Notes: generated by a model not told the origin, from the sequence alone. A stretch of DNA of 64,000 bases from Patescibacteria group bacterium (GCA_038065415.1 JBBTRA010000007.1:34615-98614), one strand, 5' to 3'; shown: positions 3,052 to 35,990, counted from the stretch's first letter. Translations and numbers: made by a program.

Positions 3052-3597
3052 TTAAACCTTCTTAACTTGCAAGAAATCGAGCTCTACGGGTGTTTCGCGG
3101 CCAAACATCGAAACGAGCACTTTGACCTTGCCGCGCTGTGTGTCCACCTCTGCAACCTTGCCTTCAAAATCCTTGAATGGACCATCTGCAACCTTGACCA
3201 GATCCCCTGTCGAAAGATCGATAGAATGCTGAGTGTTCCCTGTGTTCATGCGTGCAAAGAGAGCCTCGACTTCCTTAGCATCGAGTGGAACCGGAGCAAC
3301 TCCTGCACCGACAAATCCCGTAACGCGTGGAGTGTTGCGCACTACGTACCATGAATCATCGGTCACGATCATATCTACCAGAACATAGCCGGGGTATATC
3401 TTCTCCTCCTCTTCCACGCGCTTGCCACCCTTGACCTTGATCTTCTTCTCAGTCGGTACAATGACAGCAAAAATCTTGTCCTCCATTCCGAGAGACTCTA
3501 TGCGCTGCTTGAGGTTACGAGCGACAGCGTTCTCATAGCCGGCGTAGGTATGGATGGCATACCACGAGCGCTCGCCTGTTGTGTGTTGTTTGGACAT
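3052..3597 (-). CDS. nusG: transcription termination/antitermination factor NusG
   Basis: 181 aa with an N-terminal NGN domain and a C-terminal KOW domain (GDLVKVADGPFKDFEGKVAEVD). Confidence 0.9.
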   Translation of the reverse strand: MSKQHTTGERSWYAIHTYAGYENAVARNLKQRIESLGMEDKIFAVIVPTEKKIKVKGGKRVEEEEKIYPGYVLVDMIVTDDSWYVVRNTPRVTGFVGAGVAPVPLDAKEVEALFARMNTGNTQHSIDLSTGDLVKVADGPFKDFEGKVAEVDTQRGKVKVLVSMFGRETPVELDFLQVKKV

Positions 3598-3622
3598 GAT
3601 GTTGGTAAATTAGGGAGTAATC

Positions 3623-3799
3623 TTAAAAAAGGAGGGTGAGCAACTTCGAGAACACAAAATCTGAGACACCAAGAAGCGCAGCTACGACAACAGAAACGAC
3701 GATCACCATGACGGTGAAGCGAGTGGTTTGTTCGCGGCTCGGCCAATTGACGTGGGTCATTTCAGCGCGTGTTTCCTTGACGTATTCAGTGAATTTCAT
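3623..3799 (-). CDS. secE: preprotein translocase subunit SecE (58 aa, below the ORF-track cutoff)
   Basis: Manual translation gives MKFTEYVKETRAEMTHVNWPSREQTTRFTVMVIVVSVVVAALLGVSDFVFSKLLTLLF. It sits directly upstream of nusG-rplK, which is the conserved gene order. Confidence 0.75.
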   Translation of the reverse strand: MKFTEYVKETRAEMTHVNWPSREQTTRFTVMVIVVSVVVAALLGVSDFVFSKLLTLLF

Positions 3800-3825
3800 G
3801 TGTTTGTGCGATTGGTATTAAAAAA

Positions 3826-3845
3826 CCCCGGCGGGGGATTACGTG
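3826..3845 (-). other. GC hairpin (CCCC-loop-GGGG) followed by a T-run, 25 nt upstream of the secE start
   Basis: Read on the minus strand as ...CCCCCGCCGGGGTTTTTT...; it looks like an intrinsic terminator or leader structure. Confidence 0.35.
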
Positions 3846-4012
3846 CACATAGTATAGGATAAGTAGAGCAAAGTCAAGAATCGAAAAACAGCAGTGGTTG
3901 AAGGCACCCTCAACCCATACGAGCTCAGGAACTTTTTCTCCGGCAACTTCTTTTTTTGATGTGGTGCAATATGGCAAATGAGGGCTTTAAACCTCAACCT
4001 TTTAAAACACAA

Positions 4013-4041
4013 GAACCCATTTCTGTGAATGAAATGGGTTC
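4013..4041 (-). terminator. intrinsic terminator (perfect 11-bp stem GAACCCATTTC/GAAATGGGTTC) downstream of the 4092..4883 gene
   Basis: Perfect stem-loop followed by a T-rich tract on the minus strand. Confidence 0.5.
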
Positions 4042-4091
4042 TATGTGCACACACCTTTCCTCTATGGTCCGTGTTCGAGGTGAAATCCTTA

Positions 4092-4883
4092 TTATTTGAT
4101 CTCGTATGTGATCGTCACGTTACTCGTAATCTTCTGTTCACCAGTTGGTATCTCCGGTGTAGCTGTAGGAGCTGAAGAAACCTTGGCATTCATGAGCATA
4201 TCGCCACCCATACCTTCCCTACCATAGAATACTGGCTGATCACTCGCGTCATAGAAGCTCGTGATTTTCACAATCTTGACTCCGAGCTGCTTGGCCAAAT
4301 CCTTTGCCTTTGCCTGCGCATCAGCAATAGCCTTTGCACGTGCTTCTGCCTTAACCTTCTCGATATCATCGATGGAGAATGAAAGACCATTCACATTCTC
4401 AACATTGAGAGCTCCGATGGTGCTAAAGATTGCCCCCGCCTTCTCGAGATTGCGGATCTTAACCTCGACAGATTGAACAACATCATACCCGGTAAGTGTA
4501 GATTTGCCCGGTGCACAACGGTACGTATTGCAGTCTCCGCCGGCATACTCATAATGAGGATTGATTGAATAGGATACCGTCTTGATATCTTTCTCTTCGA
4601 CTCCGCCATCGCGGACAGCCTTGAGAGCTGCGTTGATGCGATCCGTCGCCTTCGACTGCGCCTCAGCAACAGTCTTCGCCGTCTCGGTTACACCGAAGGA
4701 GAATGTGGCGATGTCCGGAATAGATACCGACTCTCCCTTACCGTTCACAGAAATGCTGTTATACGCTGGCATCTCGTTATCGTTGAGAGATTGCATGCCT
4801 TTGATAGAAAGGACTGCAAGAAATACGACGAGCACGATCCCGACGAGGGAGGCCACTTTCCAAAACCGATCTTGTACGTTCAT
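4092..4883 (-). CDS. SIMPL/DUF541-family (YggE-like) periplasmic protein with an N-terminal membrane anchor
   Basis: 263 aa with an N-terminal TM helix. Composition and motifs resemble the DUF541 '26 kDa periplasmic immunogenic protein' family; this is a recollection-based call. Confidence 0.5.
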   Translation of the reverse strand: MNVQDRFWKVASLVGIVLVVFLAVLSIKGMQSLNDNEMPAYNSISVNGKGESVSIPDIATFSFGVTETAKTVAEAQSKATDRINAALKAVRDGGVEEKDIKTVSYSINPHYEYAGGDCNTYRCAPGKSTLTGYDVVQSVEVKIRNLEKAGAIFSTIGALNVENVNGLSFSIDDIEKVKAEARAKAIADAQAKAKDLAKQLGVKIVKITSFYDASDQPVFYGREGMGGDMLMNAKVSSAPTATPEIPTGEQKITSNVTITYEIK

Positions 4884-6794: not shown

Positions 6795-7315
6795 TGTAAG
6801 ACAGCTGTATTATCTACGGTTTCTGTAATCATGTATTTCTTAAAGACAATATTCGCCAACACAAACAGGGCTATAGAGGTCACTGCCGAACCCAGACAGT
6901 ATATACACCATGCCTTGAGGATAAATGCTTGTACAACCAAAAACCAGAGAGACATGAGCAGGCCGAAGATCGTGAGGAACAAAGTCCATTTGAGGATCTC
7001 TGTTTTCTTGGTGTCCATATAGGCAAAGATACCGATAGCAATAACCAGATAATAGAGGGCGCCGAGTAGTGAAACCGGCATACCAAGAATCAACGAGTAC
7101 GAGCTTGTGAGTACAGTCTCACACCCAGAAACGACGGAGCACGGAGGTATGACTCCCTTATAGTGTTCAATCGTCAGATATGCCGCATCGACGAAACCGA
7201 GCACAGCAACGATCAGTATACCGACCGCGAAGCTAGTTGGAATCGCCGCGAGCCGCGTCGTCAATAATTTTCTTAAATGCTTCATAGCTTTGTGGATTAA
7301 CGATAGCTTTGCCAT
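6791..7315 (-). CDS. vitamin K epoxide reductase (VKOR)-family membrane protein
   Basis: Multi-TM protein with a loop Cys pair (CSVVSGC) and a CXXC in a TM helix (CIYC), which is the VKOR signature. Adjacent to a DsbA-like gene. Confidence 0.7.
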   Translation of the reverse strand: MAKLSLIHKAMKHLRKLLTTRLAAIPTSFAVGILIVAVLGFVDAAYLTIEHYKGVIPPCSVVSGCETVLTSSYSLILGMPVSLLGALYYLVIAIGIFAYMDTKKTEILKWTLFLTIFGLLMSLWFLVVQAFILKAWCIYCLGSAVTSIALFVLANIVFKKYMITETVDNTAVLQ

Positions 7316-7901
7316 TAACGAAGAATGTAGGAGTTGAATTCACGCCGAGTGATATGCCCTCATCTCGATCACGCTGTACCCTCTTCTTGACCGAATCACT
7401 TGCGAGGTCCTTCTTGAAAGCTTCAGTATTGAGTCCGATGCGTGTAGCATATCCCTCGAAGACGCTCTCTGTATTCGGGAGGTTCTCCCATGACTTCTGA
7501 TTATCGAAGAGGAGCTGATACATCTCCCAGAACTTACCCTGAAGGCCCGCTGCTTCAGCCGCCTGAGAAGCGATAAAAGCATTTTTGTGCGGCTGAGGAT
7601 ACAACGGATAATGACGGTAAACGAAGCGAACTGTAGTTGTCGACTCGCTAAGCAGGCGTTCTACGAGAGGATAGTATATAGCACATGCCGGACACTGAAA
7701 ATCGCTATACTCGATGAGCGTTACCGGGGCATCTGCAGATCCACGAACATGGTCGGCCTCTGTAACAGGGGCTGGGGCACCGAGATTGAGACCCATCACA
7801 GGAGGCTTATTCATAGCAACGACTAATCCCCATATGATGAGACCGAACACTACGACGAAACCGAGCCAGAAGATGATGCGTTTTGTATTCATACCGGGCA
7901 T
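7233..7901 (-). CDS. DsbA-family thiol:disulfide oxidoreductase, membrane-anchored
   Basis: Thioredoxin-fold protein with a CPAC active site (DFQCPACAIYYP) and an N-terminal TM anchor. The ORF-track N-terminal extension overlapping rlmH is unlikely to be real. Confidence 0.75.
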   Translation of the reverse strand: MPGMNTKRIIFWLGFVVVFGLIIWGLVVAMNKPPVMGLNLGAPAPVTEADHVRGSADAPVTLIEYSDFQCPACAIYYPLVERLLSESTTTVRFVYRHYPLYPQPHKNAFIASQAAEAAGLQGKFWEMYQLLFDNQKSWENLPNTESVFEGYATRIGLNTEAFKKDLASDSVKKRVQRDRDEGISLGVNSTPTFFVNGKAIVNPQSYEAFKKIIDDAARGDSN

Positions 7902-7935
7902 TATTGCATGAAAACCCCAATTTTTGAAGCCTGTA

Positions 7936-8385
7936 TCAGTGATGGTACTTCTCTCCCTTGAGTATGGTGCACGCGCGATACATCTGCTCGGCCAAAATGA
8001 GACGTACCAGCTGGTGCGGGAATGTGAGCTGTGAAAGTGCAATGGTCGTCTTTGCTCGCGCGCGAACCTCATCGCCCAAGCCATATGATCCACCGATCAA
8101 GAACACGAGAGATTTGAGTCCTTCATTCATTCGTGTCTGGATAAACTTGGAAAAATCAACCGAAGAATACTCCTTTCCCTTCTCATCAAGTGCGACAACA
8201 TGCGAACCTGTATCATATGTTTCCAGGGCTCTGGTGATGCGCTTCCCTTCTTCACTCGCATCAGATGCGGGAATGTATGTCCACTCGATGGGGATATAGT
8301 GAGCTATGCGTGATGAATACTCTGCGACTGCTTCATGTGCCGAGAAATCCTTCTCCTTACCTATGACGATGATAGCTATCTTCAT
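7936..8385 (-). CDS. rlmH: 23S rRNA (pseudouridine1915-N3)-methyltransferase RlmH
   Basis: 149-aa SPOUT-class protein with RlmH/YbeA motifs (VFLIGGSYGL..., KGEKYHH C-terminus). Confidence 0.8.
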   Translation of the reverse strand: MKIAIIVIGKEKDFSAHEAVAEYSSRIAHYIPIEWTYIPASDASEEGKRITRALETYDTGSHVVALDEKGKEYSSVDFSKFIQTRMNEGLKSLVFLIGGSYGLGDEVRARAKTTIALSQLTFPHQLVRLILAEQMYRACTILKGEKYHH

Positions 8386-8936
8386 ACAAGCTGTGCGAAC
8401 CAGCCGATAAGATATATACCGAGCATGTTCATAACGAATGCGACAGGAATAAGGACCGTCAATCGAGTCTTGGAAAGACCGAGAAGGGCCACGCCAAGCT
8501 CATCAGGGAGCGGTGAGGCAATAATAAGGGCGCCAATCACTGGTGAGAGCCATTTGAGGAAGCCAAAATGCAAGGAGTGCATGATATGCTTCACGAATGA
8601 CGGCTTGAAGACATTGAGCAGATCAGCAGTGAAGCGATCACGGATGAAGAAGAACAGGACCAGATCTCCACAAAGTGCACCGAGTCCACCCCAGAATGCC
8701 ACCACTCCAATCGGCGTGTATGAAGCAATGTGTGTGAGTGCGATTGATGCAGGCCCAAGCGTGAATGCAGAGGTGAAGAATATGCCCGCAAAGAAGCTTG
8801 CAATGATACCGTTACCGAGGAGTGAGATGATCGCATCGAGGATACCTGCCTTGGACAAGAAAAGAGCGACCGCAAAGCCTATAACGATGAGCATGATGTC
8901 TTTGATGAGTTCTGTGCGTGCTCGTGCTGAGGTCAT
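8382..8936 (-). CDS. hypothetical integral membrane protein (5-6 TM)
   Basis: Hydrophobic 184-aa ORF; no family assigned. Confidence 0.4.
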   Translation of the reverse strand: MTSARARTELIKDIMLIVIGFAVALFLSKAGILDAIISLLGNGIIASFFAGIFFTSAFTLGPASIALTHIASYTPIGVVAFWGGLGALCGDLVLFFFIRDRFTADLLNVFKPSFVKHIMHSLHFGFLKWLSPVIGALIIASPLPDELGVALLGLSKTRLTVLIPVAFVMNMLGIYLIGWFAQLV

Positions 8937-8967
8937 GTTAGTGTATTTCCTATTATGTCATATACAT

Positions 8968-8994
8968 AAAAGCCCTGCACATGGTGCAGGGCGA
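8968..8994 (-). terminator. intrinsic terminator (9-bp stem GCCCTGCAC/GTGCAGGGC) downstream of the AAA ATPase gene
   Basis: Hairpin followed by TTTTAT on the minus strand. Confidence 0.5.
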
Positions 8995-9029
8995 AGCTTC
9001 TTACAATATTTACTGATCGGCAACCAAAC

Positions 9030-10466
9030 TTAGCGCGCCGGAGTAGCAGCTTCTACATGGACATGACCATTCCCACGATGATTCCCTGTTTCACTGGCCG
9101 TCACCAGAGCTTGGCCCAGGCGACCTAAGAGGTCATTATTCTTGGGCTGATGCTCTTCCGCACCGTCACTAAAGAGGGCGCGTTCGCGTTTGAGAGCACC
9201 TGCCGCGTAGGTCAGATCATCGGCCGTGATGAGAACCGGCGTCTTCCCCGAAGAGACCACCGCCAATTTGGCACGTTCGACGACTTCGCGGATTTCCGCC
9301 GGAATCGAGCCGTCCAACTGCTTTCCGGCCTCACTCAAGTCCTGATCCTCAACAAGGAGAACGCCTGCATAATGCTTCAAGAGCCGTTCGGCCGTTGCAG
9401 CATCGGGCGGCAGCATGTTGATCGCAGTATCGATCCGACCTGGGCGACGCATGGCGGCATTGATCTGTCCCGGATGATTAGTGGTGAAGATCACCATCAC
9501 TTCGCTGTCCTTGTTGGTGATACCATCAAGTGAGTTGAGGATGGTGTTGACGTCGTTGGTCCGGCTTTGTCCGGTAACCCGGTCAATGTCTTCGACAAAC
9601 AACACACACGGTTCATACTGCCGCGCCACCTGAAGCGCCTGAGGCAATTCAGCGGACTTGGGCAGATAGATGAACGTCCATCCCTTTTGAGTACAGATCT
9701 GGGCGATTTGCGTAGCTGTCAAGGTCTTACCCGTACCGTACTGGCCCGCGATGAGAACTCCGCGACGAATCGGCGTACCAATAGCGCGCACCGCCGCCGT
9801 GTTCCGGATCGGACCCAGGATACAGGTATCAATATCACGCTGAATCTCAGGGCGAACGATCACGGTCACCGGGTCCGCCGGTAATTCGAGGAACTTGACC
9901 TCGGGCATCTTGCGCACCGCTCCGGTCGCATCGGTCAATTCAATACCGAATGCCTTGCCGCGATACGGACTTTCGTCCGCTGCCAATTTCTCAATCCGCT
10001 CAATCAGCGCACTGATCGTGTGTTCGTTTTTCCCCTGAACATGCGCATGCAAACGGAAGATCAACCGCCCATCGTCTTGGTCCGTCCCGGTCTCAACGTA
10101 GCCACCCATTGGTAGATCGTACCGGCCCCAACGGACTTTCATCGTCTTACCCACACCGACGGCGACAGAGATGTCAGAGCCAGCATTTTCGGTTTCAACA
10201 GTGAAGCCAAACATTGCCCGAAGCGCTTTTGCGAGCGCAATCGCCCCTTCGTGAGGCGAGACATGAATGCTGTGCTGGATGCATCGCTCCTGTTCTTCTT
10301 CGTCCTGTTTCCGACCAAGAACACGAATAGCGTTCTCCAGAGTCATCTTGGCAGGAAGTACGATGGCATCCCCCTCGCGCCTCACGTTCACTTCTGGTTT
10401 ACCGCGACGATTATTGTCGCCGTACGCTGCATCATGAGCACCATACTGCAATGGTCTATTTTTCAT
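9030..10466 (-). CDS. classic-clade AAA+ ATPase with a roughly 230-aa N-terminal domain of unknown function
   Basis: Walker A GQYGTGKT, Walker B CVLFVEDID, and second region of homology TTNHPGQINAAMRRPGRID. It is markedly GC-rich compared with its neighbours. Confidence 0.8.
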   Translation of the reverse strand: MKNRPLQYGAHDAAYGDNNRRGKPEVNVRREGDAIVLPAKMTLENAIRVLGRKQDEEEQERCIQHSIHVSPHEGAIALAKALRAMFGFTVETENAGSDISVAVGVGKTMKVRWGRYDLPMGGYVETGTDQDDGRLIFRLHAHVQGKNEHTISALIERIEKLAADESPYRGKAFGIELTDATGAVRKMPEVKFLELPADPVTVIVRPEIQRDIDTCILGPIRNTAAVRAIGTPIRRGVLIAGQYGTGKTLTATQIAQICTQKGWTFIYLPKSAELPQALQVARQYEPCVLFVEDIDRVTGQSRTNDVNTILNSLDGITNKDSEVMVIFTTNHPGQINAAMRRPGRIDTAINMLPPDAATAERLLKHYAGVLLVEDQDLSEAGKQLDGSIPAEIREVVERAKLAVVSSGKTPVLITADDLTYAAGALKRERALFSDGAEEHQPKNNDLLGRLGQALVTASETGNHRGNGHVHVEAATPAR

Positions 10467-10608
10467 CTATTAGTCCTTTGTTGTCTGTTTTTTGTTTGTT
10501 TTGGTTGCTATATGTGACGAACAACCCGAAATATTACTAACATAAACTCATAAATATGTCAATATTCTGAACTCCCGAGCAGGATTCAGTGTAAAAATCT
10601 ACATTCTG

Positions 10609-10680
10609 GGCGACTAGAGGGAATCGGACCCTCGACTTCGGCTCCACAAACCGAGGTTTTACCATTAAACTATAGTCGCC
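10609..10680 (-). tRNA. tRNA-His (anticodon GTG) with an encoded G-1; no CCA encoded
   Basis: Manual cloverleaf: acceptor GCGACTA/TAGTCGC with G-1:C73, a D-loop GG, and anticodon loop TTGTGGA. Confidence 0.8.
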
Positions 10681-10689
10681 ATATCGAAC

Positions 10690-11262
10690 CTACTCGTATG
10701 TAGGTGCAGACTCCTTTATACCAGATTTATGGTTGTTTAGTCGAGCGAGCGCGTAGAACAGCGATGAGAGCCTGTTCAAGAATGAAAGAGTTACGGAACC
10801 AACCTTCACTTCCCCACTCTCGACTCCAGCAATCACTCGGCGCTCTGCCTTGCGTGCCAGCGTCCTCGACACATCCATGAGCGCCGCTAATTCCGTTCCG
10901 CCGGATATGAAAAAAGTTTTTATAGGGGGCATCTCCTTTTCGGCCCAGTCGACTATGAACTCGATCCTGTCGACTTTGTCCTGGCCAATCTTTTTATCTG
11001 CACCCGCAACCTCCGCCTGTACGATGAAGAGACATTCTTGCACCCACTGAATAATTTCGGAGACTTTCTTCTGGGTACCAGCCGATATGTTGACCTCATA
11101 TCCAACATCTGCAGATCGTATCTTTACCAATCCATTAAACGAGTTGAGCTCATCCAATGCTCCGAGTGCCTCAGTCTGACATGAACTCTTGGATATGCGC
11201 TGGCCAGGCTTTGAGTCGAAAGCCTTGGTCGTGCCGCCATCGCCTTTACGAGTATAGAGCAT
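10690..11262 (-). CDS. ATP:cob(I)alamin adenosyltransferase, PduO/MMAB type
   Basis: N-terminal YTRKGDGGTT motif typical of PduO-type adenosyltransferases; 190 aa. Confidence 0.75.
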   Translation of the reverse strand: MLYTRKGDGGTTKAFDSKPGQRISKSSCQTEALGALDELNSFNGLVKIRSADVGYEVNISAGTQKKVSEIIQWVQECLFIVQAEVAGADKKIGQDKVDRIEFIVDWAEKEMPPIKTFFISGGTELAALMDVSRTLARKAERRVIAGVESGEVKVGSVTLSFLNRLSSLFYALARLNNHKSGIKESAPTYE

Positions 11263-11271
11263 GGGACGAGA

Positions 11272-12060
11272 TTATATTGCTTCCCCAATGAACACCAAAT
11301 TGTCCAAGAAAAATGTTTTGCCCACCGCCGCACCCTCGCTCAAAAGAGCAACTGCATCAATACCAGTATTTTGCGCATTTGAATACCCGGGTACATTTAT
11401 CGAAGAAACGAATACACCGTCACGATAGAAATTTAACTTGGTTCCGGCAATCGATATGAGATTGTAGTGCCACTTGTCATCAGCAAGCACCAATTTTCCA
11501 AGCTGAACAGTTGACGCGCCTTGCACATCGAGATATCCATTGTTACTCGGGTTATCAGTGCTGAATGTAAATCCACTTGCATCTCCATGTAGCTCGAGCA
11601 ATGTGATCGGAAAACCTGCCGATTTTGCCCAGAAACCTATGGAAAATTTTGTGAACGGCTTATCTGTTGCCCGGATACCCCCACTATCCCACGACAAGAA
11701 GGAGTACTGAATTGAGTTCAGTGCCATATTATAGCTACGACCCTCTCCTGTCGGAGTCTGGGTAGAAAGCACCGCACAATCGGATTCTGTTCCGCCTGGC
11801 GGAATCAGTGTAAGACCATTTGGACGAGAGGTATCAGGAATCTGCGGAAGCGTCCCTGTACAAGGGATATTTTCGAAATCATATCGAGCCAATATATTAT
11901 CGGCAAATGCAGTCTGTGTATGTTTCTCGAACCTCAGCCCCGCCGCGATTCTACTCTTATCTCTCGCCGCCTGAACCGAGACAAGAATGACGGATGAGAG
12001 GACCATCATGATAGACATGACCACCAATAGCTCAACCAAAGTAAAACCTCTCTTATTCAT
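11272..12060 (-). CDS. type IV pilin-like protein (prepilin N-terminus plus a lectin/LamG-like C-terminal domain)
   Basis: Class III signal peptide KRGFTLVELLVVMSIMMVL. The likely start is MNKRG. The C-terminal roughly 200 aa are beta-rich. Confidence 0.7.
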   Translation of the reverse strand: MNKRGFTLVELLVVMSIMMVLSSVILVSVQAARDKSRIAAGLRFEKHTQTAFADNILARYDFENIPCTGTLPQIPDTSRPNGLTLIPPGGTESDCAVLSTQTPTGEGRSYNMALNSIQYSFLSWDSGGIRATDKPFTKFSIGFWAKSAGFPITLLELHGDASGFTFSTDNPSNNGYLDVQGASTVQLGKLVLADDKWHYNLISIAGTKLNFYRDGVFVSSINVPGYSNAQNTGIDAVALLSEGAAVGKTFFLDNLVFIGEAI

Positions 12061-12134
12061 GGCTACCAGTATATCACGATGCGCACGACTGACCCTGTGC
12101 ACGAAAAAACCGGGCGTTACCCGGTTTTCATCTG

Positions 12135-31535: not shown

Positions 31536-32012
31536 TTATTGAAACTCAATCACTCTCTCTGTATCCTTTTCCCCCACTTTAAAATTGAGCTGCGAATATC
31601 CATCCAAGCCTTCAACCATCTCCTTTACATTCTCCGGCCACTCGATGAGAACCAGATTACCTCGATCCGCTGCGTACGCCTCAAAATCAATCGCACCCAA
31701 TTCCTTTGCGTGCTCAAGCCGATACGCATCGATATGCACCAGTCTCTCCCAAGAAAATCCTTTTGAAGAATCTATAGGATACACCTTCATAATCACAAAA
31801 GTAGGGCTCGTCACATCTTCAGTGATGCCGAGCGTCTGGGCGACGCATTTTGCAAAAGCTGTCTTGCCGGCACCTAGATGACCAGCGAGCCCGACGACCG
31901 TCGCTCCAGATGAAACACCTGTCGACGCCGATCTCTGGGCCGCGGCGCGAACCAGCCACTCTCCCGCTATCTTTGCGGTCTCTTCGGGTGAATGGGAGAT
32001 ATATTTTGCCAT
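31536..32012 (-). CDS. tsaE: tRNA threonylcarbamoyladenosine biosynthesis protein TsaE
   Basis: P-loop GHLGAGKTAFAK and TSPTF motif. Confidence 0.85.
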   Translation of the reverse strand: MAKYISHSPEETAKIAGEWLVRAAAQRSASTGVSSGATVVGLAGHLGAGKTAFAKCVAQTLGITEDVTSPTFVIMKVYPIDSSKGFSWERLVHIDAYRLEHAKELGAIDFEAYAADRGNLVLIEWPENVKEMVEGLDGYSQLNFKVGEKDTERVIEFQ

Positions 32013-32735
32013 GCGGTAATACTACACGCACAAGAGCGATGTCTCAAGGCGTCCCGAATACTGGGTGCCGTCGTAGAGGATGTTAGAACTGTTTTTGAAC
32101 GATTAGGTGATACCACGATTCATCTTCCCACTTTTAATTAACAATAAAAAGAAGGCGCGCGTCGACAAAGTCAAACGCACGCCCACAACTTCTAAACTGC
32201 GAACCGACAAGAGATTTTGGCCGTCGTTAGACAGCCTCCATTCTTGACTCTCCATATTGTCGCCTCACATGTCGACGGGAGGAGAGGCCCTAAACCACCG
32301 ATCGTCACCGATGGAAAAGCAGTTGTTGAGTTCGCTCTGCAACTTTCTGCTTTTTAAAATTTCTTACAGCGGATTTGCTTCTCGGTCACTATAACTGGAA
32401 CAGTAGACGGGAGGGGGACCATTTGGCCGCCGGCCGAATTTAATAAAGTATAGGTCTTCGGGCTTCAGTTTAGACCTACGTTTAGTGTTTGGGGTTTTTC
32501 TTCTAACCTTTGTACTTTTCATATAAGATCCTTTTCCAAGCACGTTAAAGAACTACTGCAATAATAGCATAGTTATTGCTTACTTGTCAATGTCTTGGGT
32601 CCCCAGAGGTCCGTTACTCTGGAGGTGTTAGGTGACGAATGTTGCTTGGAAAGTGTGGCGAGGAAGCCATTTCATTTCTGTGGCAAAAAAGGAAGAACAT
32701 CAAAAATGTATCCCTCCTTCAGTCGAATACTAAAA

Positions 32736-32765
32736 AGCTGCATCCCCTTTCGAAGATGCAGCTGT
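32736..32765 (-). terminator. intrinsic terminator (8-bp stem GCTGCATC/GATGCAGC) downstream of the lipoprotein gene
   Basis: Hairpin followed by TTTTT on the minus strand, immediately 3' of the 32783 stop. Confidence 0.55.
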
Positions 32766-32782
32766 GAATGATGCTTCCGGAC

Positions 32783-33436
32783 TCAACGATAGATCGAGTG
32801 CGGAGGCGACGGTATCGGATGTGTCCGTGGAATGGGGCGGTTCAGGCGGGGTTGTGGTTGATGACCGTATCCTCCACCATGCCCGTATCCCCCTCGGCCG
32901 CTGTACAAATCCTGCGTCCGACGGATCTCGCGCCCTTGCATGTAGTCGGGGCTCCAGTACCTGTCAGGGTAGCTGTTGCCGAAACCGATCACATTGATAC
33001 TGGCCGATGCCTGGAAGACATTACCGAACCAGCTCGTTCTGCACGGAGACGCCGCCACAACCTGTGGTTGTGTAGGAACAGGAATGTAGTGCACCTCTGT
33101 CCGAGGCGCTTGATCCTGCCAGATGTGCGTCGACCCGACACGCGGTGCGCAGGGTTTCGGAGCGCACGGTTTTGGTTCACAGCTTTTCTCAACCTTACTG
33201 TTGCAGGAATTGGAGCATGGGCTCTTTTTCTGTGCCTGCGAACTGACGCTCACCGTGATTTCAAAGACACGAGGAGCGTTGGTTGTTTTTGCTGGTGAAG
33301 GCACCGTGGCGCACAAGCATTTCGCGGACGAAATCACCGTGATTTCATACACACGCTTGGGCGCACGTGCGCGATCGCTCGAGCATCCAGTTGTTGCGAC
33401 GCAGAGCGCCGCTACCATCCATAGTATTTTTTTCAT
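32783..33436 (-). CDS. putative lipoprotein, Cys/Pro/Gly-rich with internal repeats
   Basis: Signal peptide with a lipobox-like sequence (LCVATTGCSS); repeats RVYEITVISS/RVFEITVSVS; KPCAPKPCAP; and a Gly/His-rich tail. GC-rich. Confidence 0.5.
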   Translation of the reverse strand: MKKILWMVAALCVATTGCSSDRARAPKRVYEITVISSAKCLCATVPSPAKTTNAPRVFEITVSVSSQAQKKSPCSNSCNSKVEKSCEPKPCAPKPCAPRVGSTHIWQDQAPRTEVHYIPVPTQPQVVAASPCRTSWFGNVFQASASINVIGFGNSYPDRYWSPDYMQGREIRRTQDLYSGRGGYGHGGGYGHQPQPRLNRPIPRTHPIPSPPHSIYR

Positions 33437-33576
33437 AAAAGTGCAGTCGTGGTACAAAGGACCTCCCTTTGCTTCAAGTTATATTATACCATGTTTAGTG
33501 CATAAAAGTCAATATCCCTGAAATGGCTCTGTAGCGAGCTTTCACAAACCCTCACTTGACGATATAATCATCATCA

Positions 33577-35583: not shown

Positions 35584-35990
35584 ACGACTAAAAACACCTT
35601 TGACTCCCCTGTCAAAGGCGTGCGGTGAAACTTTTCCCCATTGATTTTATAAACCACAAGAGTAGGATGAGTCCAGATGAGTCTCTATCCGTTCAAACTA
35701 GAGAATCTCTAAGCAATATCTCGGCGCGTGATGCGCCAAGCGAGGTAGAGTCCCGAGGATAATTACAGTACGCAATGCAAGCATTGCAACCAGAATGTCC
35801 TTAGCACTATACCCAAACCTGGGAAGGCCATTGCTTAGAGGTTCACGAGTTCGAAATGAGCACACTCGATTATTCGGCACATCGGGCAAATAGACATATA
35901 AAAATGCGACGCCCTTCGTTCGCATTCCTGATATGCATGTTATACACTACATATGTGACTTCATGCATATCCTAGCATACACATATTAAA

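Follow-up and report, generated by a model that had tools for sequence, protein, structure and literature searches.

A short integrase-less unit of a Patescibacteria serine recombinase element family likely occupies the gene-free gap upstream of tsaE

The largest gene-free gap in the window (the whole 64,000-nucleotide stretch of Patescibacteria DNA that was analysed) lies between tsaE and a putative lipoprotein gene. We consider it likely that this gap holds a single unit without an integrase, which a family of large serine recombinase (LSR) integrative elements of Patescibacteria (CPR bacteria) has left behind or mobilised. The unit would span 32063-32731 on the minus strand and sit at a non-canonical place, between the terminator of the lipoprotein gene and the leaderless promoter of tsaE. 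It may be regarded as a mobile-element relic, or possibly as a cassette that is still movable in trans.

The gap covers 770 nt (32013-32782) in a window that is about 90% coding according to a greedy ORF map. No ORF of at least 60 aa was found in it on either strand, and the longest one reached 59 aa (32364-32543, minus strand). Its GC content was 0.45, compared with 0.48 for the window and 0.55-0.60 for the adjoining lipoprotein gene. A first-pass annotation had described an ORF-free segment, with no reading frame of 60 aa or more, in an otherwise about 90% coding window, and both statements agree with these results. The four hairpins that it had listed were all found in the sequence. The two flanking genes and three of these hairpins are as follows:

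31536-32012, minus strand: tsaE (Pfam TsaE, E 2e-29)
32783-33457, minus strand: putative lipoprotein gene, rich in Cys, Pro and Gly
32425-32435: hairpin ggccgccggcc
32569-32590: hairpin gcaataa/ttattgc
32604-32623: hairpin ccagag/ctctgg

The comparison with related genomes showed how this gap differs from their spacers. The gene order PilB / lipoprotein / tsaE, with PilB on the opposite strand, was kept in five related Parcubacteria lineages (L004, L005, L084/L086, L087-L089 and L090). The nearest TsaE relatives of the window were only 57-72% identical. The spacer between the lipoprotein gene and tsaE was only about 76-190 nt in these five lineages. The alignment showed that it consists of the lipoprotein terminator and, almost directly after it, a conserved promoter (TTGAGR-17-TAGTAT) whose -10 box stands 6 nt ahead of the tsaE ATG. 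In L004 and L005, the equivalent terminator stands immediately ahead of the tsaE promoter. The same terminator and promoter are both present in the window, but they are about 660 nt apart. Because the five lineages have only about 76-190 nt before tsaE, the segment 32063-32731 (about 660 nt) is a lineage-specific insertion and not a decayed resident gene. Neither tsaE nor its promoter was damaged by the insertion. The features at its two junctions are as follows:

32736-32763, minus strand: lipoprotein intrinsic terminator with a 12-bp stem and a T-run; resident, marking the upstream limit of the insertion
32724-32731: first copy of the direct repeat, CGAATACT (minus strand: AGTATTCG), at the junction on the lipoprotein side and 5 nt beyond the T-run of the terminator
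32055-32062: second copy of the direct repeat, CGAATACT, at the junction on the tsaE side and 8 nt away from the -35 box
32012-32047, minus strand: resident tsaE promoter TTGAGA-17-TAGTAT, with the ATG 6 nt past the -10 box (leaderless); a conserved block in L004 and L005

The repeat search showed two exact copies of the 8-bp direct repeat with a spacing of 669. Deleting 32063-32731 leaves terminator-TTTTTAGTATTCGGGACG-CCTTGAGA, which is collinear with TTTTTTCATTCCTG-CCTTGAGG in L004. The sequence expected for the empty site is ...GCAGCTTTTTAGTATTCGGGACGCC..., and the circle junction expected for an excised unit is ...GACGGCACCCAGTATTCGACTGAAGG.... Chance 8-mer repeats do occur in 800 nt, and seven repeat families were found. 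It is the position at the junctions that gives this repeat its weight; we estimate a chance of about 1% that two 30-nt junction windows would contain such a pair. At the place matching the repeat, L004 has ATTC, which suggests that the 8-bp repeat is duplicated target DNA resembling native spacer.

The lipoprotein gene itself showed weak similarity to a protein of L005 (33% over 66 aa, E 0.011). A lipoprotein gene stands between PilB and tsaE in all related genomes examined, and it is therefore resident and not foreign. The suggestion of the first-pass annotation that this GC-rich gene and the gap form one acquired island thus fails on the gene, which lies at the same place in all relatives examined. 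Its other suggestion, a decayed foreign segment, is right: about 660 nt are absent from the relatives, and one end is a piece of a serine-integrase element.

The contents of the inserted unit were annotated as follows:

32685-32717, minus strand: hairpin GGAGGGAUACAUUUUUGAUGUUCUUCC with UUUUUU behind it, terminator-like, where the unit has its 5' end; present in the MFE and centroid folds
32561-32590, minus strand: putative sigma-70-type promoter TTGACA-18-TATTAT with extended TG, matching 11 of 12 consensus positions
32364-32522, minus strand: basic 52-aa ORF (MKSTKVRRKTPNTKRRSK...) with AAGGA 7 nt upstream; doubtful as a gene
32315-32354: hairpin AAAAGCAG/CTGCTTTT (AAAAGCAG...CUGCUUUU) followed by TTTTTAAAA, an inverted repeat directly after the 52-aa ORF; present in the folds
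32143-32184, minus strand: GC-rich hairpin GGCGUGCG...CGCGCGCC followed by UUCUUUUUAUU, resembling an intrinsic terminator and closing the cargo; stable in both the MFE and the centroid fold
32061-32141, codons on the plus strand: detached recombinase 3' end and P-side half of attP, LGAVVEDVRTVFERLGDTTIHLPTF, then N and the stop

Read along the minus strand, the lipoprotein terminator (32763-32736) is followed by AGTATTCG (32731-32724), the first hairpin with its U-run (32717-32685), the promoter-like site (32590-32561), AAGGA with the 52-aa ORF (32522-32364), the hairpin at 32354-32315, a structured stretch, the second hairpin with a U-run (32184-32143), the recombinase tail (32135-32061) ending ...GGCACCC, the second AGTATTCG (32062-32055) and the tsaE promoter. 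The GCAATAA/TTATTGC hairpin falls in the spacer of the promoter-like site. The hairpin at 32315-32354 could serve as a bidirectional terminator. The hairpin at 32143-32184 was missed by a simple hairpin scan, since its loop is longer than the limit of the scan.

Nothing similar to the cargo DNA was found in the window, in 170 related or family loci, in 80 tsaE-anchored loci, in phages, plasmids and viral contigs, or in the JGI metagenomes, which were searched with six peptide-pattern probes spread over the insert. The first-pass annotation had proposed looking for the segment elsewhere; only the 75-nt piece recurred, and the cargo was found nowhere. The small ORFs and the stop-to-stop fragments of all six frames gave no significant match in Pfam, NCBIfam or PHROGs. 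Most probably, the cargo has decayed or does not code for a protein. Since a terminator at each end of the insertion shields tsaE, a neutral effect is probable. With its 590 nt or so and the 75-nt piece, and with a hairpin, a promoter, the cargo and the repeat in this order, the unit agrees in size and layout with the array units described below, and its 5' end showed no sequence homology to the common 5' module classes of the related arrays.

The first lead to the origin of the unit came from a tblastx comparison of the gap with 88 related loci. The sole match joined 32058-32135 to an intergenic stretch of L072, a Nomurabacteria MAG, with an E value of 5e-5. The two-sequence peptide alignment was used as the query of a JGI metagenome scan, which gave 486 pattern matches, of which 311 were confirmed; 80 loci were kept. 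The conserved block is 75 nt long and has sharp edges, and its flanks are not conserved. A nhmmer search with a profile of 105 unique copies placed the window copy at 32062-32134 on the minus strand (model positions 2-74 of 75, E=2e-18).

The translation of the window copy is LGAVVEDVRTVFERLGDTTIHLPTFN-stop. This peptide is 64% identical to P0207, a recombinase of 546 aa, over residues 517-544 of the latter (E 2e-10), and the recombinases P0122, P0154, P0156 and P0177 also matched the window tail in tblastn. The window copy ends ...CGACGGCACCC|AG, with a core of GGGTGCC on the plus strand (GGCACCC on the minus strand), which fits the 7-nt core GNCNCCC. GGCACCC also ends the tRNA-His of L165 and is common to the element there. 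The tRNA-His of the window itself ends GTCGCCC, with two differences from the core of the window copy.

The variation in the 75-nt repeat has a 3-nt period, also in copies that were not picked by peptide patterns. This periodicity appears to be the legacy of a coding constraint, or a constraint that continues. In its first half, the repeat has strongly conserved third positions, which would fit a superimposed DNA-site constraint. RNAalifold found no consensus secondary structure on either strand of the 105 copies. The motif GTTCGA lies 27 nt from the core end in the repeat, versus 22 nt in the T-loop of tRNA-His; this 5-bp offset presumably resembles the difference between attP and attB half-sites reported in structural work on serine integrases.

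Two other readings of the 75-nt repeat were tried and rejected. The 3-nt period had first suggested a free-standing micro-protein gene; however, its codon 1 is mostly CTG and sometimes TGG or TAG, stops lie 1-5 codons upstream, and the frame is that of the C-terminus of a 520-590-aa recombinase. A permuted tmRNA or tRNA-like gene was considered on account of the GTTCGAAC motif and the tRNA-like 3' end, but the acceptor strands are unpaired and ARAGORN was negative. The tRNA-like look of the repeat is due to the core that it shares with tRNA-His. In current annotations, the 25-codon fragments appear as 'hypothetical proteins' of 30-110 aa.

The complete recombinase was found in L165, where the frame running through the repeat is open for 556 codons and ends ...NLRGAVVEDVRTVFERINDTTIYIPELQPVEFV. 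The protein is a large serine recombinase, because it has the Resolvase, Recombinase and Zn-ribbon domains. At E<=1e-30, the search gave 562 homologues, and their sources, where named, are mostly Parcubacteria, Paceibacterota or Patescibacteria. We fetched 120 of these homologues and inspected their C-termini. The tail motif was present in 5 of the 120. An ending encoded by antisense tRNA-His codons was found in 31 by the strict pattern ...RG[GAD]-Y-[RW]-E-[SL]-N-P..., and in about 45 when close variants were included. Many others stop right after RGG, RGA or RGD. The peptide G-D-Y-R-E-S-N-P is the translated reverse complement of the tRNA-His 3' end (GGC GAC TAC CGG GAA TCG AAC CC). In L172, tRNA-His (c[11586-11659]) and the recombinase gene (10001-11641) physically overlap. 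From the antisense-tRNA tails and this overlap it follows that attP lies inside the recombinase ORF, about 25 codons before the stop.

The normal target of the recombinase family is the tRNA-His 3' end. The 7-nt core shared by element and target is GGCACCC in L165 and GTCGCCC or GCCGCCC elsewhere. Integration cuts the recombinase gene about 25 codons ahead of its stop. The gene body then reads into the antisense strand of tRNA-His and gains the new tail G-D-Y-R-E-S-N-P..., and the last 25 codons (VVEDVRTVFERLGDTTIYIPTF) stay behind as a 75-nt orphan at the other (distal) junction. When such events recur, arrays of one orientation grow downstream of tRNA-His. The window has no recombinase gene: tblastn with the 120 family recombinases found only the 25-codon tail and the antisense strand of tRNA-His. 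A profile of the C-terminal 170 residues detected no remnant of the recombinase body in the gap. A tyrosine recombinase was also considered, and the motif search found none in the window.

Arrays of the repeat were found downstream of tRNA-His. Among the 80 loci, 30 carried 2-5 repeat copies, always in one orientation and 0.5-2 kb apart. An intact tRNA-His(GTG) stood upstream of the first repeat, on the same strand and 0.5-2.7 kb away, in 27 of the 80. No more than a few bases separate the repeat from the stop codon of the preceding ORF. The sequences after tRNA-His and after each repeat fell in the same module classes; 57 of 120 unique junction flanks formed one cluster, and 12 of those 57 came from tRNA junctions. 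The typical post-junction module has a hairpin and a T-run, followed by a motif like AGTTCTGA...TATACT, which we take from its sequence to be promoter-like. Each array unit consists of this 5' module (terminator hairpin and promoter-like motif), 0.44-2.8 kb of cargo and the 75-nt orphan.

The units between junctions measured 444-2811 nt, and the 74 units fell into 62 sequence clusters. The ORFs adjacent to the repeat were diverse and included methyltransferases, APH phosphotransferases, AAA_33 kinases, HAD hydrolases, a vitamin transporter and a polysaccharide lyase; no ORF family was common to more than 8 loci. Most arrays had no recombinase gene within 3 kb. When the ORFs were extended through 22 repeat copies, only that of L165 was long, and this was the recombinase; the units next to tRNA-His are therefore integrase-less. 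The order in L165 is a cobalamin-adenosyltransferase gene, tRNA-His, a two-ORF unit, the repeat, and an intact recombinase gene reading into the repeat. Thus, the recombinase gene of an element is completed by the repeat of the unit before it.

The tRNA-His of the window (10608-10679, minus strand) is 21 kb from the repeat, which lies upstream of it, so the repeat is not at the canonical site. The repeat copy of L072 likewise has no tRNA nearby. The chromosomal surroundings of tRNA-His are nevertheless the same in the window as in L165: starting from tRNA-His, the adenosyltransferase gene comes first, next a gene (11272-12102) with a pilin-type N-methylation motif, then tRNA-Leu(gag), L19 and finally a pseudouridine synthase gene. 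The window holds a single repeat copy, and same-orientation arrays occur in the related loci only.

The LSR family was compared with known systems. Its recombinase domains (Resolvase, Recombinase, Zn ribbon) are those of the serine-integrase elements phiC31, Bxb1, TP901-1 and A118, and, like serine-integrase elements and prophages, it integrates site-specifically into the chromosome and leaves hybrid junctions. Unlike in phiC31-type elements, attP lies inside the reading frame of the recombinase itself, and the last ~25 residues are swapped. The tRNA 3' end as target, the arrays of short integrase-less units and the window copy without a recombinase gene also set the family apart from them. 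The 3' end of a tRNA gene is a target typical of tyrosine rather than serine integrases. In the SSV1-type (fusellovirus) integrases of archaea, attP lies within int, and integration into a tRNA gene partitions int. The likeness to this type lies in the splitting of the element's own integrase gene, in the tRNA gene as target and in the detached gene fragment at one junction. The SSV1-type enzymes are tyrosine recombinases of archaeal viruses, whereas the present one is a serine recombinase of CPR bacteria. Furthermore, only the extreme C-terminus is exchanged here, and the truncated gene gains a tail encoded by the antisense strand of the tRNA gene.

The arrays also resemble integron cassette arrays and CALINs in their same-orientation repeats, which directly follow the stop codons of diverse, mostly single-gene units of 0.4-2.8 kb. 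CALINs are attC clusters without an integrase, and the lack of a nearby recombinase gene in most of the present arrays is a further likeness to them. An attC-like site was sought in the 75-nt repeat and rejected, as the repeat has no dyad symmetry or fold and no RYYYAAC/GTTRRRY boxes. The enzyme is a serine recombinase in contrast to the tyrosine recombinase IntI, and the arrays are anchored at tRNA-His in contrast to attI next to intI. The CIMEs of Streptococcus ICEs accrete in tandem, as integrase-less elements, at tRNA genes. They share with the present family the integrase-less units and the att-type repeats in tandem by a tRNA gene, and the units are presumably movable in trans. Compared with CIMEs, the present units are far smaller, their repeat is a piece of the recombinase gene and not of the tRNA, and the recombinase belongs to another class.

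As for the unit in the window, the whole 660 nt presumably arrived in one event, a recombinase presumably placed it there, and it now seems to be inert. The ~590-nt cargo could in principle have an origin separate from that of the 75-nt piece. Serine recombinases exchange strands at a 2-bp crossover, and for this reason the 8-bp flanking repeat is not the product of a serine recombinase alone. The junctions share the 8 bp, and the sequence to the left of the repeat (GCAGCTTTTT) is unlike the tRNA-His half-site. Possible routes of arrival are secondary-site recombination in a fortuitous 8-bp identity, microhomology-mediated capture or a transposase-type event. A repeat that duplicates target DNA suggests a better fit to the transposase or to microhomology-mediated capture.

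A related reading goes further and takes the segment as an intact, trans-movable cassette of an undescribed integron-like gene-capture system in CPR bacteria; we hold this possible but doubtful. An LSR with attP inside its own 3' coding end would stack short cassettes at tRNA-His. Each cassette would bear the last 25 codons, so that the recombinase gene would be recompleted at internal array junctions, and switching from the native to the antisense-tRNA tail or back would help to set the direction of recombination. 

It is unlikely that the segment is a functional accessory cassette with a live small-protein cargo, encoded by the 52-aa ORF (32364-32522) or by a 50-aa ORF (32103-32255). There is a promoter-like site, AAGGA stands 7 nt before the ATG of the 52-aa ORF and a hairpin right after its stop, and elsewhere in the family a unit contains one or two real genes, and the repeat comes immediately behind the stop codon. 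The 50-aa ORF was called by one gene caller. However, the 52-aa and 50-aa ORFs scored -0.16 and -0.15 under a 3-periodic Markov model trained on the genes of the window; these values fall within the distribution of spurious (shadow) ORFs and below 98-99% of the real-gene windows. The 52-aa ORF was not called by the gene callers and had no match in Pfam, NCBIfam or PHROGs, nor did the 59/52-aa frame have a homologue among 5.8 billion proteins. The 50-aa ORF forms a singleton cluster and runs through the terminator hairpin at 32143-32184.

The segment could also be a non-autonomous DDE-transposon (MITE-like) with an 8-bp target-site duplication, in which the integrase fragment is passenger DNA. 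The exact direct repeat at both junctions and its resemblance to the native spacer of L004 agree with this, and an rve-family IS is inserted in the neighbouring spacer of the relative L087. Nevertheless, the segment has no terminal inverted repeats, no second copy in the 64-kb window or in any collection searched, and no transposase remnant in any frame. On one side, the segment and the recombinase-derived repeat end at exactly the same base, as is seen at every array junction. We regard a MITE-like origin as very unlikely.

A structured ncRNA had been one suggestion of the first-pass annotation for this gap. A candidate for a novel one, which would then be the functional content, is a ~400-nt minus-strand transcript running from the promoter at 32590-32561 to the terminator at 32143-32184. 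The promoter-like site is strong and the terminator-like hairpin is correctly placed. The gap folded better than 20 dinucleotide shuffles (minus strand z = -4.06, plus strand z = -2.45); the minus-strand values were -3.45 for 32140-32315 and -2.72 for 32140-32555. In the calibration folding, the gap had z = -2.76, and ten 770-nt coding windows of the same genome had a mean of 0.14 (sd 1.5) with a minimum of -2.72, so that one coding control reached the same z. The hairpin excess of the gap is real but modest and goes little beyond chance, and it is mostly due to 3-4 terminator-type hairpins. With Rfam 15, a check that the first-pass annotation had advised, the gathering threshold gave only 7 tRNAs in the whole window. 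No RNA family was found in the gap even at E<=10, where the single match on 31900-32900 was terminator-like (a terminator-like sRNA, E 0.54, at the hairpin 32685-32717), and ARAGORN found no tmRNA. The bulk of the segment showed no sign of conservation, with no similar DNA in any of the collections searched for the cargo; the relatives do without the segment; and the 75 nt that are conserved lack a consensus structure. These results do not support the ncRNA, which we consider highly improbable.

A pseudogene of a resident gene that related genomes still keep here, the alternative for which the first-pass annotation had pointed to the relatives, can practically be set aside, as the related loci have only the terminator and the tsaE promoter at this place, the tblastx comparison with the 88 related loci gave only the 75-nt repeat, and the six-frame fragments matched no family.

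For this genome, the insertion is an ordinary mobile-element scar, harmless to tsaE and its promoter. It does, however, expose a large element family, with 562 recombinase homologues and 311 confirmed copies of the fragment in the JGI metagenomes. Full-text searches found no description of this element family; it appears undescribed in the searchable literature, and its design is unusual for a serine integrase. The annotation of genomes is affected, with the 25-codon fragments being called as hypothetical proteins. The family may offer serine integrases with a defined natural target. It brings to the small genomes of Patescibacteria a serine integrase that targets a tRNA gene and rewrites its own C-terminus on integration. 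The very diverse accessory units arrayed at one hot spot bear on how CPR genomes acquire flexible genes.

The features of the window considered here are as follows.
3598-4091: gene-poor gap of 494 nt in the greedy ORF map.
10608-10679, minus strand: tRNA-His.
32012-32047, minus strand: tsaE promoter TTGAGR-17-TAGTAT, a conserved block.
32861-32893: short tandem-like repeat ATGACCGTATCCTCC / ATGCCCGTATCCCCC within the lipoprotein gene.
35584-35990: gene-poor gap of 407 nt in the greedy ORF map.

The tsaE promoter block was kept just upstream of tsaE in two relatives, L004 and L005, and in all three sequences its end lies 6 nt from the tsaE ATG. No Shine-Dalgarno sequence was present upstream of tsaE in window 32012-32047, L004 or L005. 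From its sequence, tsaE appears to be leaderless.

The lipoprotein gene looks foreign because of its high GC content and the GGYGH-type repeats encoded by ATGACCGTATCCTCC / ATGCCCGTATCCCCC; despite this, it is syntenic in the relatives. In one relative (L087-L089, approximately 3134-4195), a transposase gene of the rve family (IS-type) has entered the stretch separating PilB from the lipoprotein gene. The short conserved gene block of PilB, lipoprotein and tsaE is therefore a place where mobile DNA lands repeatedly. The gaps at 3598-4091 and 35584-35990 had no sequence in common with the gap at 32013-32782, between tsaE and the lipoprotein gene.

After the tRNA-His of the window lies a promoter-like sequence, AGTTCAGAATATTGACA, followed by a gene for a 478-aa AAA/STAND-type NTPase, an oppositely oriented ORF of 232 aa, and a gene for a DsbA-like protein. 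This region (7233-10679) is a possible island occupying the canonical site of integration. Neither the 75-nt repeat, which is the detached 3′ end of a large serine recombinase gene, nor a recombinase was detectable within it.

At related loci (L092, L101, L111, L135, and L170; also L094, L106, L138, and L142), a conserved hairpin lies approximately 100 nt past the tRNA-His or the last repeat. Beyond it, on the opposite strand, is a tRNA-like 3′ fragment, which reads TTCGATTCCCGGTAGCCGCTCCA or is extended and has one additional stem; it was called by neither ARAGORN nor Rfam. This feature may represent either native sequence flanking a tRNA-His site that is empty or a convergent RNA gene that has escaped annotation. 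One further related locus, L132, has an array of three copies of the 75-nt repeat, adjoined by the following feature.
L132 5508-5628: LOOT RNA (Rfam RF03000), 83 bits.

Many public gene calls of 30-113 aa (P0244-P0263) comprise little beyond the detached 25-codon recombinase tail, and these "proteins" are probably annotation artefacts. Some recombinases of the family (P0143, P0151, P0162, P0170, P0178, P0185, P0220, and P0229) have C-terminal tails such as RDSNPRPPVPQTGALTN or QDSNLQPTP, which resemble what other tRNA genes would encode if translated in antisense. This resemblance suggests that the family includes recombinase sub-families targeting non-His tRNAs.
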